Source of the DNA: Candidatus Omnitrophota bacterium
Lineage (GTDB): Bacteria > Omnitrophota > Gorgyraeia > Gygaellales > Profunditerraquicolaceae
Direction of reading: 5' to 3'
Length of the DNA: 64,000 nt
NCBI GenBank assembly: GCA_026387455.1
Contig: JAPLLR010000047.1
Coordinates: forward strand, 1,828-65,827
The position numbers are program-made. Positions 51,001 through 54,000 of this stretch are shown one piece after another (position 1 is the stretch's first letter; each line of letters opens with the position of its first letter).

Positions 51001-54000
51001 AATCCGCGGCATGCCCCAACGCAACATTCGCCTCAACCGTATCCATGCCTTTATCTTGCAAAGCATAAGCCTTGATCTTTTCTACCAGCCCGATTCCCCG
51101 GCCTTCCTGGCTCATGTAAAGTACAACTCCTTTATTTTCTTTCTGGATCGCCTGCATAGCCAAATCTAACTGCTTGCCGCAGTCGCAACGCAAAGAGCCA
51201 AAAACATCCCCGGTAAGACACTCTGAATGCACGCGCACTGTCACCGGCTCACCTAAAACAAACTCTCCCATCACTAAAGCAGAATGCACCTTGTTATTAG
51301 TAAGATCCTTATACAGGATCAGATTATACATGCCGAATTCCGTAGGCAACACAGTCTGAGCAACTCTTTCGATCAGTTTCTCCGAGCGCCTGCGGTATTC
51401 AATAAGATTAGAGATAGAGCAGATCTTTAAATTATGCTGCTTGGCAAAATCCAGCAGCTCGGGCAGGCGGGACATTGTCCCGTCGTCATTCATTATTTCG
51501 CAGATCACTCCTGCCGGATACATTCCCCCAAGCTTCATCAGGTCAACAGAAGCCTCGGTATGCCCTGCCCTGACTAAAACTCCTCCGGATCTAGCGCGCA
51601 AAGGAAAAATATGGCCGGGGCGGATCAGGTCTTCAGGCTTACTTTGAGGACTGATTAAGACTTCTATAGTGCGGCTGCGGTCAGGAGCGGAAATGCCTGT
51701 AGTTACGCCTCTTGCCGCATCCACGGAAATCACCCAAGCAGTCTTAAAGGGGTCTTCCTTCTTAGAATGAGCCCGGTCTTTAAGCATGGGCTCAAGATCC
51801 AGCTGCTGCAGCCTTGGCTCTTCCATAGGCACACAGATAAGCCCGCGGCCGTACTTAGCCATGAAGTTGATGTGTTCAGGCCTTGCCGCGGAAGCAGCCA
51901 TGACCAGGTCGCCCTCATTCTCGCGGTCCTCATCATCAACGATGATCACCATGCGGCCTTTTTTTAAATCTTCTAGAATTTCTGGTATAGAGTTAAACAT
52001 AAATGAAGGCATAAGTTATGGAGGGCTCATTTCATTCGCACCGACATAACTTATCTGCCTGAATTTACCCCCCGCGATTAGTTTTGCCTGCAAAACTGCG
52101 GGGGGTGATGTCTCCTTAAAATAAAAAGCCCGAAGGTGATCTCCGGGCAAAGAAATATCAATCTCCTTCCATCTGGACTTTGCCGAGAAACGGCACCCCA
52201 ATCTATCCTTTAAAATTGGGGGTGCCCCGCTACTGCGGGACCCCCAGCTTTATAGGATCAGCTGGGGTATGCTTTCGGCATAACCATCGGCTCCGGAATT
52301 TTACCGGATCTTGCCTCGGCTCTCGCCGAAGCTCGCGGGCTCAACCGCCGGTCAGGATTTTCGCCTTGCCCTGAAGATTAATCTTCTTTAAGTATATCAA
52401 AAAAACTTACCTTGTCAACACCTTTAAGAGGCACTATAATATAGTTATGCTGCAACATATTATAAATCAAGTACATAAATCCCTGATAAAATCCGCCAAA
52501 ACCATCGCGGTAGCCGAATCCTGCACCGGTGGCCTGCTCTCTGCCATGCTTACCGAGCTTTCCGGAAGCTCAAAATACTTTACCTTAGGCGTAGTCACTT
52601 ACAGCAATAAAGCCAAAGAGCGGATCCTCGGCATCCCTTCTTCTGTTATTGCCAAAAACGGTGCGGTTTCCGAAATTGTAGCTAAACTAATGGCGCAAAA
52701 AGTGCGCCGACTAGCCAAAACCGACTTCGGCATTAGCATCACCGGCATCGCCGGACCTGCTGGTTGCGCAGAAGTGCACACCGGCGCCTCCTTTAGCGCC
52801 GGGTGCGGCACAACCCGCAAGCCCATCGGCACCGTCTTTATCGCTATAGCAGCCAAAAACAAAACACTTTGCAAACAATTCCGCTTCCGCGGAACCCGCC
52901 GCAGCATCAGAAACAAATCCGCCCTGGAAGCGGTAAAGTTATTAAATATTTTAGTGGAAACTAGATTTTGATTTGATATGATTTCGAGTCTTGATTGGGG
53001 AATAAAATTTAGTAAGCCCTTGCAATTAAAGCAGTTGCGATGGCTTTTTGTTTGAAATAAAATAAAGGTAAAAGAGTAATTATGAAATTAGGTCATAAGA
53101 TTGGCTTATCAATATTAGTTATAGTTCCAATTTGGATATTCATCCGAGCTCAATTAATTTACAGGGAAGGCCCAAAGATTGTTAAGATAATTGAAAAATA
53201 TAAAGTAGATAATAACAAATACCCAGAAACATTACAGCAAATAGGGGTAAGAAGTTTTTTACATCCTATGTATTTTTTGACACAAAAGAACAAGTTTACT
53301 TTAATGTATTCAATTTTCGCCTATGCCAGATGGTATTATAACAGTGAAAAAAATGAATGGGGAACGCTGGATTAACCATATGTATTCATCCTTCTCTTTC
53401 TCTTTTAAAAAATATATCAAAGAACTTTCTCGGCCTTGGAAATTAATTTCTTTTTCAATTGCTTTAGGGTATTACATTTGGGGTGCCTATTACTATAAGT
53501 GCCCTACTTGGGATGTGCCTGTTTCTATCATTATGAGCATCTTAACCTATGTCTTTGCCCCTTGGACCGTAAATTCTATCTGCTACCTTATTCAAAAACG
53601 GCCAAGATATTGGATTGTTAAATCTTTAGTTTGCATAGCAGTAATCTATATATGCGCATCAGCATCTTATGAGCTATATAACTGGTGGCATCTGGGCTAC
53701 TGGCCGCCACCCACATATTGGACGAACTTGTGGTATTCAGGCTGTGCATTTATTGCAGCAGGAATACTATGGAAGTTTGAAGGCACTCTAAAGGAGTTAA
53801 TCTCTGGCCTCCTTGTAGATTTAAAGAAAACTACTAAACTAGCGAGATAGCTAACTCTTTTTACCCTTTCTCCACCTACTTCGTTTTTAGCGGCTGGCTT
53901 GGCTTGGTTCGAGCGGGACGTCCGAGGAACCGAGCGGGCATGGCGCACGCCTTCGGCGTGCAGGCGAGGTCCACAGGCTAACAAGGAGAGTAAGTTAGCG

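Follow-up and report, generated by a model that had tools for sequence, protein, structure and literature searches.

Organization of the AT-Rich Islet

In a 64,000 nt stretch of a Candidatus Omnitrophota genome (assembly GCA_026387455.1, contig JAPLLR010000047.1, positions 1,828–65,827 of the forward strand), hereafter the window, two small genes coding for membrane proteins were found between a cinA/pncC-type gene and thpR. They lie in the lowest-GC stretch of the window (nt 52986–53875), an islet formed by two co-oriented genes on the plus strand. ORF1 (nt 53082–53375) codes for a 97 aa protein with an N-terminal membrane anchor followed by a predicted periplasmic domain of ≈70 aa, and ORF2 (nt 53380–53850) for a 156 aa protein with four transmembrane (TM) segments, rich in Trp and Tyr, for which 42 close homologues were retrieved. 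ORF2 had been listed mechanically as nt 53323–53850 (175 aa), and the alignment of 27 homologues moves its start to the ATG at nt 53380, four bases past the ORF1 stop; the two genes are probably translationally coupled.

An initial annotation of this DNA had described an AT-rich island between the two flanking genes, coding for a 97 aa single-TM protein and a 4-TM, Trp/Tyr-rich protein of about 155 aa, neither of a recognizable family. Both descriptions agree with our data: ORF1 carries one N-terminal hydrophobic segment, four long helices are present in the ORF2 model, 17.3% of the ORF2 residues are Trp or Tyr, and no match for either protein was retrieved from Pfam, NCBIfam or PADLOC. The flanking genes were also correctly named and oriented. 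On the left, a 174 aa protein of the cinA/pncC type is encoded on the plus strand (nt 52447–52971; Pfam CinA, E 6.5e-51); on the right, thpR (nt 54158–54730, plus strand; Pfam LigT_PEase, E 1.6e-30) codes for an RNA 2′,3′-cyclic phosphodiesterase of the LigT family, which is 100% identical to a protein of a Candidatus Omnitrophica metagenome-assembled genome (MAG) in NCBI. Both are native core genes.

The reported compositional drop over about 900 bp is real. Over nt 52950–53550 the GC content of 300-bp windows falls to 0.30–0.32, versus 0.44 for the whole window, and the 600-bp windows of lowest GC in the 64 kb all begin between nt 52851 and 53101 (minimum 0.308; mean 0.444, standard deviation 0.037). 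The proposed look at codon usage gave the same picture, ORF1 and ORF2 having the two lowest values of GC content at third codon positions (GC3) among the 56 genes of the window (0.296, z −4.0, and 0.382, z −2.2, respectively). Since GC3, measured at synonymous sites, is also low, the anomaly is more than an effect of amino acid composition.

The limits of the unit were set by comparison with the closest copy of the pair, in locus L011, which shows 86% DNA identity to the window over nt 52997–53830 only, within unrelated flanks, thus placing the acquired unit at approximately nt 52986–53875. The islet is therefore where it had been reported (nt 52972–53860), while its borders are slightly shifted. 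The 5′ non-coding part of the unit (nt 52986–53081, plus strand), where the homology with L011 starts and upstream of which the flanks are unrelated, contains a purine-rich ribosome-binding stretch and a putative sigma-70-like promoter, retrieved by promoter scan as TTGCGA-17-TAAAAT at nt 53035–53063, whose hexamers are kept in L011. The 3′ tail of the unit and the right junction (nt 53851–53883, plus strand) were delimited by inspection of few cases: here TTTCTCCACCT resembles the right ends of the L011 copy and of the cargo of locus L028, and ACTTCGTTTT stands before the GC-rich element described below, in the window as at junctions devoid of cargo.

The cinA–thpR Junction in Related Lineages

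Seven related Omnitrophota lineages, with ThpR 65–89% identical to that of the window, all lack the pair at this junction. Synteny is kept in these relatives (ribH-ribBA/cinA … thpR/pgpA-pgsA-rimO-rodZ-ftsK), with cinA syntenic in L026, L028, L030, L035, L042 and L044. In the closest relative, L044 (ThpR 89%), and in L030 (81%) the junction is empty and contains the GC-rich element only; L035 (65%) is likewise empty of cargo, and in L042 (79%) cinA abuts thpR, with no cargo. Other genes occupy the junction in the remaining lineages: an AT-rich gene for a 117 aa soluble protein in L026 (85%), a 142 aa 4-TM protein in L028 (82%) and, in L032–L034 (71%), a secreted TPR-repeat protein of 454, 284 and 352 aa (L032 nt 1394–2758, L033 nt 1624–2478 and L034 nt 1663–2721, respectively), whose repeat number differs among the three samples despite identical ThpR.

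The insertion point appears well defined. The cargos of the window, L026 and L028 all sit just 5′ of the first base of the GC-rich element. On the left side, alignment with L026 and L028 delimits a junction zone of ≈25 nt past the cinA stop (nt 52972–52996, plus strand, TTTGATATGATTTCGAGTCTTGA): the same ≈25 nt (GATTTGATATGATTTCGAGTCTTGA) are common to L026 (nt 4317–4345) and L028 (nt 4305–4330), which carry other cargo, and are absent at empty sites; the L011 copy has the GAGTCYT part at its left end as well. From these alignments, the shared stretch may be a cassette end or a recombination core.

That the pair is a recently acquired, compositionally foreign two-gene module is well supported, because the junctions of the relatives are empty or hold other cargo, the pair is found elsewhere in unrelated contexts (once with 86% DNA identity) and both genes are GC3 outliers. 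Horizontal acquisition, as suggested in the initial annotation, thus stands; the same two ORFs conserved here in related genomes with no compositional anomaly, a finding that would have spoken for long residence, were not encountered, as neither the conservation nor the normal composition was found. The pair would most likely have arrived by recombination at a recurrent hotspot, bounded on the left by the cinA stop and on the right by the 5′ end of the GC-rich element. No recombinase was found in the window flanks, and none travels with the pair.

Integration hotspots between conserved core genes are a general concept of pangenome studies, and the cinA–thpR junction resembles them, being either empty or occupied by one of four different contents. 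It differs from them in that the insertion point is defined within few nucleotides, beside a conserved structured element, and in that the cargo is tiny (0.4–1.4 kb), with no integrase or tRNA at this site.

Features of ORF1 and ORF2

ORF1 and ORF2 are real genes under purifying selection, as indicated by a dN/dS (ratio of nonsynonymous to synonymous divergence) of 0.10–0.16 versus five other copies, wherever dS is unsaturated (about 0.11 for ORF2), and by 32 invariant columns in the ORF2 alignment. These columns fall in the motifs RPWK, PTWDVP, SYELYNWW, PPPTYW.NL.YS and AAG..W.FEG. The 42 close homologues of ORF2 are 53–100% identical, nearly all of them being unnamed metagenomic sequences, with the few named ones from Omnitrophota MAGs. 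The AlphaFold (AF2) model of ORF2 has a mean pLDDT (predicted local distance difference test) of 86 and shows, besides the four long helices, amphipathic helices at the N- and C-terminus.

A wider superfamily of ORF2-type 4-TM proteins, not covered by Pfam, comprises 406 clusters at E ≤ 1e-3 and includes members from Nitrospirota and Polyangia; the positions conserved throughout are RPWK, WD, AP, Y..Y, N...S and G..W. In the Ralstonia neighbourhood (homologue at nt 1809935–1810567 of megaplasmid CP049788.1, corresponding to L045 nt 6899–7531) a Rhs gene lies 4 kb off, on the opposite strand and in a separate operon, and was not counted as evidence; the upstream gene overlapping a distant Polyangia homologue proved unrelated to ORF1. 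When the ORF2 model was searched against BFVD with Foldseek, one borderline match was obtained (A0A6J5PFH6, E 1.1e-3, TM-score 0.58/0.68, 22% identity), a 132 aa uncharacterized protein of an uncultured Caudovirales phage.

ORF1 homologues (61–94% identity) were in every case found immediately before an ORF2 homologue. They occur in two forms, a short one of 97–98 aa and a long one of 161–174 aa (394 aa once) with extra N-terminal TM segments, the long forms keeping the same C-terminal domain as the short one, with the motif YK.xN..YP..L ... W..D. The structure model of ORF1 is poor (pLDDT 59), too weak for use. A hydrophobic N-terminal helix followed by a YK.dNg.YP..L..L motif recalls GspG, the pseudopilin of the type II secretion system (Pfam T2SSG). 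ORF1 was nonetheless rejected as a GspG member: its N-terminus (MKLGHKIGLSILVIV) lacks the prepilin-peptidase cleavage motif G/(F,M)TLxE, the T2SSG match (E 0.0066) misses the cutoff and was obtained for only 2 of 13 members, and the hhalign probability is 4%.

Distribution of the Pair at Other Loci

The pair occupies no fewer than 10 unrelated sites, in host genomes with 37–62% GC, and its GC content is below that of the host in all loci compared (hosts 0.37–0.62), except for ORF2 in L015. No other gene of the window has a relative in any other pair locus. ORF2 homologues with enough sequence around them are all immediately preceded by a small gene of the same orientation, mostly an ORF1 homologue; in L019 and L020 it is a different protein of 69–71 aa. 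The settings are diverse: between nrnA and ribF in L003, before mtnA in L016, next to a DDE transposase and an HTH_17 gene in L006, in a MAG of 61% GC labelled Elusimicrobia in L009. Several copies adjoin tRNA genes, as in L012 and L015, ≈55 nt downstream of two different tRNA-Ser genes, and in L019, near a tRNA-Gln and a GIY-YIG gene. The pair was not found in IMG/VR or among GenBank phages.

Comparison of the window (nt 53082–53850) with L011 (nt 5637–6399) reveals a mosaic, ORF1 having 92–98% DNA identity (dS 0.16) and ORF2 70–88% (dS 1.06). The two genes thus have partly separate recent histories, a pattern of divergence that implies recombination near the ORF1/ORF2 boundary.

Other selfish elements were observed near copies of the pair at single loci. 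A group I intron (Rfam, 87.9 bits) lies at nt 3445–3681 of L011, ≈2 kb upstream of the pair, a LAGLIDADG-like ORF (nt 110–928) beside the tRNA-Ser near the pair of L015, and the GIY-YIG ORF of L019 (nt 2361–2624) between the tRNA-Gln and the pair. Moreover, 66 nt of the window at or just upstream of the ribBA start (nt 52002–52066) match, with 74% identity on the opposite strand, non-coding DNA that closely follows the pair in L001 (nt 1209–1288); this likeness may be due to chance or to a shared small element.

Association with an Rhs Toxin Tip

The one functional context found for the pair comes from three divergent loci (L021/L039/L040/L041, L022 and L023), where its homologues are linked to an Rhs/YD-repeat protein carrying, after the DPxGL motif, a tip of ≈127 aa here termed CT1. 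A long ORF1-like gene (161–174 aa) begins at or overlaps the Rhs stop and is followed by the ORF2 homologue. In L041 the Rhs gene ends at nt 1774 and the ORF1-like gene starts at nt 1765, in L040 at nt 3097 and 3088, respectively; in L023 the tip ORF ends at nt 527 and the ORF1-like gene starts at nt 536.

Tip switching was observed among these loci (L039 nt 2–5166, L040 nt 2–3097 and L041 nt 86–3828). As is typical of polymorphic toxin loci, L039 and L040 share an Rhs core (99% identity over 907 aa) to which different tips are joined: CT1 is followed by the pair (161 + 158 aa), the tip termed CT2 by a 98 aa 2-TM protein, which is found next to the complete Rhs gene and again next to the orphan CT2 fragment of L041. 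The CT1 allele of L023, only 39% identical, is still followed by the pair. The slot directly after CT1 and the co-switching with the tip thus indicate that the pair fills the CT1 immunity slot in this subclade. No Rhs motif was found in the 64-kb window.

Like ORF1 and ORF2, neither the long ORF1 forms nor the Rhs tip nor the other cargos of the junction gave a match above threshold in Pfam, NCBIfam or PADLOC. CT1 had looked SAA-like by eye, but assignment to SAA/Lipocone was dropped, as no match was retrieved in Pfam at E ≤ 1 or by sequence search of the PDB, and comparison with human SAA1 (an approximate query sequence) gave an hhalign probability of 0.1%.

The GC-Rich Palindromic Element

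The islet is followed by a GC-rich stretch with no conserved ORF (nt 53884–54148, plus strand, GC 0.596), only 9 of 2550 windows of the same size being equally GC-rich, and its presence had been correctly noted. It had also been taken as a hallmark of the acquired island, and this part has to be revised: the element is native to the cinA–thpR spacer and lies outside the insert, for it is found at the empty junctions of L030, L044 and L035 and beside the unrelated cargos of L026 and L028. At the empty sites of L030 and L044 it begins at the cinA end (TTTTAGCGGCTGG…) and ends (…CAAGACAGACGCTAA) ≈10–20 nt before the thpR ATG; in the window the end lies ≈10 nt before the thpR start codon. Copies were located at L030 nt 4146–4308, L044 nt 447–612, L035 nt 2789–2992, L016 nt 3443–3637 and L003 nt 6497–6731. 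The termini are fixed (TTTTAGCGGCTGGCTTGG … CAAGACAGACGCTAA), and the element always ends 10–20 nt before the next start codon, be it that of thpR, mtnA or ribF.

The element is a structured palindrome. A closing helix (UAGCG.CUG.CUUG … CAAG.CAG.CGCUA) with conserved G-A mismatches is kept in all seven sequences and shows a few compensatory changes, such as CUUG/CAAG in the window versus CAAG/CUUG in L030. Fold z-scores against shuffled controls are −6.2 on the plus strand, −6.8 on the minus strand and −7.8 for L035. Inverted repeats and k-mer sharing delimit a nested hairpin unit at nt 53991–54072 (plus strand, TTAGCGGGTGGCTTGG … CCAAGACAGGACCCGCTAA); units of this kind (TTAGCGGGTGG…CAGGACCCGCTAA, 80–170 nt) lie within the element in the window, L026 and L028. 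An inverted hairpin unit is located upstream of the pair in L016 (nt 2466–2545) and L003 (nt 5489–5660), and the same kind of element follows the pair directly in both loci (before mtnA and ribF, respectively), so that the pair is bracketed there by inverted TTAGCGGGT termini. The element is low-copy, with one site in the 64-kb window; relaxed pattern matches at nt 3717 and 43480 turned out to be coding sequence. A search for flanking motifs over all pair loci recovered only the TTAGCGG-type element, at 3 of ≈14 loci.

In the window and 11 loci no match of the element to Rfam was found at the gathering score, and at E ≤ 10 only chance-level matches to miRNA hairpins; it is thus not a known RNA. 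It could be a new leader or non-coding RNA, or an element similar to repetitive extragenic palindromic (REP) sequences or miniature inverted-repeat transposable elements (MITEs). The imperfect palindrome, the conserved termini and mismatches, the nested and inverted copies and the position beside a variable region are shared with the REP/REPIN/MITE type. In contrast with it, there is one site per 64 kb, at a position just before a start codon that is conserved over 65–89% ThpR identity, no Rfam family is matched, and no RAYT or transposase was seen, though no search was aimed at RAYT. An integron attC site was considered and rejected: on inspection, the hairpins read 5′-GTTAGCGG … CCGCTAAC-3′, the reverse of 5′-RYYYAAC … GTTRRRY-3′, no integrase or cassette array is present in the window, and the element already stands at the empty sites. 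The association of the element with variable cargo is suggestive, with few cases at hand.

Other Features of the Window

Within cinA, a GC-rich in-frame stretch (nt 52760–52810, …GPAGCAEVHTGASFSAGCGTT…) occurs where CinA domains usually have a short Gly-rich loop; the same insertion was found in L042 (nt 3590–3640). The 430-bp spacer that precedes ribBA (nt 52013–52446) gave no match to the FMN (flavin mononucleotide) riboswitch, which is common at this place in other bacteria, and no Rfam family and no tRNA were found in the whole window. The second-lowest GC region of the window (nt 10300–11300, ≈0.35 in 600-bp windows) overlaps two minus-strand genes (nt 9371–11161 and 11139–11837) with the next-lowest GC3 values, and may be another acquired segment.

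Discussion

Of the functions that could be proposed for the pair, we tentatively favour an orphan immunity-type envelope module, acquired as a two-gene operon, to which we assign slightly less than an even chance. The window copy is read as an orphan because its homologues occupy the immunity slot of CT1 and no Rhs gene is present within the 64 kb. The operon, with its own promoter-like region, would be a self-contained part of a mobile accessory module of Omnitrophota. According to the positive-inside rule, applied to the ORF2 model and to the sequences, a joint action of ORF1 and ORF2 on the periplasmic side of the inner membrane is predicted, with ORF1 tethering its small periplasmic domain through a single TM helix and ORF2 exposing its most conserved motifs, PTWDVP and WPPPTYW, in two periplasmic loops. 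The pair together might then neutralize the incoming, membrane- or periplasm-acting CT1 of other Omnitrophota Rhs toxins, and the orphan copy of the window would protect its host from CT1-armed neighbours. The initial annotation had suggested, among other functions, a small toxin or immunity pair; the immunity half of this suggestion is consistent with both genes lying together in the immunity slot after the Rhs tip in relatives, while neither gene was pointed to as a toxin.

The concept of immunity genes for Rhs/YD-repeat polymorphic toxins is reportedly due to Zhang, Aravind et al. (2012). The likeness of the pair to such genes lies in the position of its homologues right 3′ of a variable tip, in the start/stop overlap and in the co-variation with the tip. 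It differs from them in being two genes and not one, both coding for membrane proteins of families undescribed as immunity, and in an ORF2 far more conserved than a typical immunity protein, the protection itself being predicted. Polymorphic toxins that act in the periplasm or on membranes are typically countered by immunity proteins with TM segments or by lipoproteins (PMC12419801). Of these, the Imm-4TM and BamE-like immunity proteins of Lipocone toxins (PMC12419801), compared by their description only, resemble our pair in the predicted action at membrane or periplasm, in a 4-TM core protein and in a small, membrane-anchored periplasmic domain; unlike the toxins of that system, CT1 has no significant similarity to SAA/Lipocone. 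Orphan, toxin-less immunity genes are known to spread horizontally (bioRxiv 10.1101/471110; PMC12247911), and the toxin-less copies of the pair, scattered as small compositionally foreign inserts, resemble them. By contrast with orphan or acquired immunity arrays (of the acquired interbacterial defence, AID, type), the window holds a single two-gene module at a core-gene junction, with neither array nor recombinase.

Several observations weigh against an immunity function. Rhs-linked loci are only 3 of ≈17 distinct pair loci, and all belong to one subclade with the long, multi-TM ORF1, whereas the window has the short form. CT1 itself has no recognizable family by Pfam (E ≤ 1) or PDB sequence search, and the absence of Rhs refers to the 64-kb window, a distant cognate toxin elsewhere in the genome being possible. 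ORF2 is 60–80% identical across very different hosts, which is unusually conserved for an immunity protein. Moreover, the ORF2-type domain is fused N-terminally to HisKA/HATPase_c in P0230 and to a metallophosphoesterase in P0270, and an ORF2-type gene is conserved singly, as a ‘hypothetical protein’, on 86 megaplasmids of the Ralstonia solanacearum complex; the fusions and the single gene argue for a more general envelope function. A mobile accessory envelope module unrelated to immunity, acting as a membrane sensor or adaptor or in the handling of lipid or cell-wall intermediates and later captured by one Rhs lineage, is thus a serious rival, which we consider possible if rather doubtful. 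The spread of the superfamily over 406 clusters, Nitrospirota and Polyangia included, and the absence of a toxin nearby at most pair loci are in its favour, along with the strong conservation, the fusions and the Ralstonia gene. It leaves unexplained, however, why the pair sits exactly in the immunity slot with a start/stop overlap, why its association is tip-specific and extends to CT1 alleles only 39% identical, and why it behaves as patchy, AT-rich cargo.

The remaining explanations are less probable. Recombination or transposition sites mobilizing small cassettes, in the manner of REP/MITE or integrons, might be formed by the GC-rich palindromic elements (TTAGCGG…CCGCTAA), a view which is compatible with the functional readings and which we judge unlikely. 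Three different cargos do have one insertion point in common, immediately 5′ of the element, as well as short end motifs (AGTCYT; TTTCYCCRCCT), and in L003 and L016 the element comes directly after the pair, with an inverted hairpin unit upstream, those of L003, L016 and the window being the sole copies within these loci and the window. Nevertheless, L011, the closest copy, and most other pair copies lack the element, no recombinase or RAYT-type gene was seen (without a search aimed at RAYT), the terminal GTT/AAC arrangement is on inspection the reverse of that of attC, and the cases are few; the stability at empty sites over 65–89% ThpR identity and the constant end ≈10–20 nt ahead of the next start codon equally fit a native cis-acting or RNA element. 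Not supported, and in our opinion improbable, is a toxin–antitoxin, abortive-infection or other anti-phage membrane effector pair, as had been put forward initially for this island: the genes are small, membrane-associated, placed in an AT-rich islet and mobile between genomes, and the borderline fold match A0A6J5PFH6 is to an uncultured phage protein, but no family was returned by PADLOC for ORF1, ORF2 or the long form of ORF1, no relatives were found in IMG/VR or GenBank phages, no defence genes are neighbours in the loci examined, and the two proteins have the look of stable proteins, integral or facing the periplasm, and resemble no known toxin. An ancestral pair, lost repeatedly in the relatives and with a low GC due to the amino acid composition of membrane proteins, is very improbable and already largely refuted. 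Membrane proteins rich in Ile, Phe, Tyr and Lys do use AT-rich codons, and the GC content of ORF2 at second codon positions is not low (0.43, z +2.1); against this, GC3 too is the lowest in the window, seven relatives lack the pair, the closest (89% ThpR) included, with three of them carrying different cargo at the same point, and the nearest copy of the pair is surrounded by unrelated sequence, with copies in hosts of 0.37 to 0.62 GC.

A bolder combination, which has in our view a small chance of being correct, is that the pair, an anchored periplasmic protein with a 4-TM protein of the large, uncharacterized ‘RPWK-WD’ superfamily, is the first two-component membrane immunity against a new, family-less Rhs tip in uncultured Omnitrophota, and that the TTAGCGG…CCGCTAA elements are the recombination sites of an undescribed system of cassette capture or mobilization; if the latter part were true, small protective genes would be placed by this system next to core genes.

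An insertion hotspot precise at the nucleotide level has been located beside a conserved, uncharacterized structured element. Two unannotated protein families, one of them with hundreds of cross-phylum relatives, are given a testable function, namely protection from a specific Rhs tip. The favoured reading of the pair as an orphan immunity module would add a further lineage and further protein families to the known pattern of orphan immunity, with no overturning of the current understanding. For the Omnitrophota, which are known from metagenomes only, it would document genes of interbacterial conflict and their horizontal spread.

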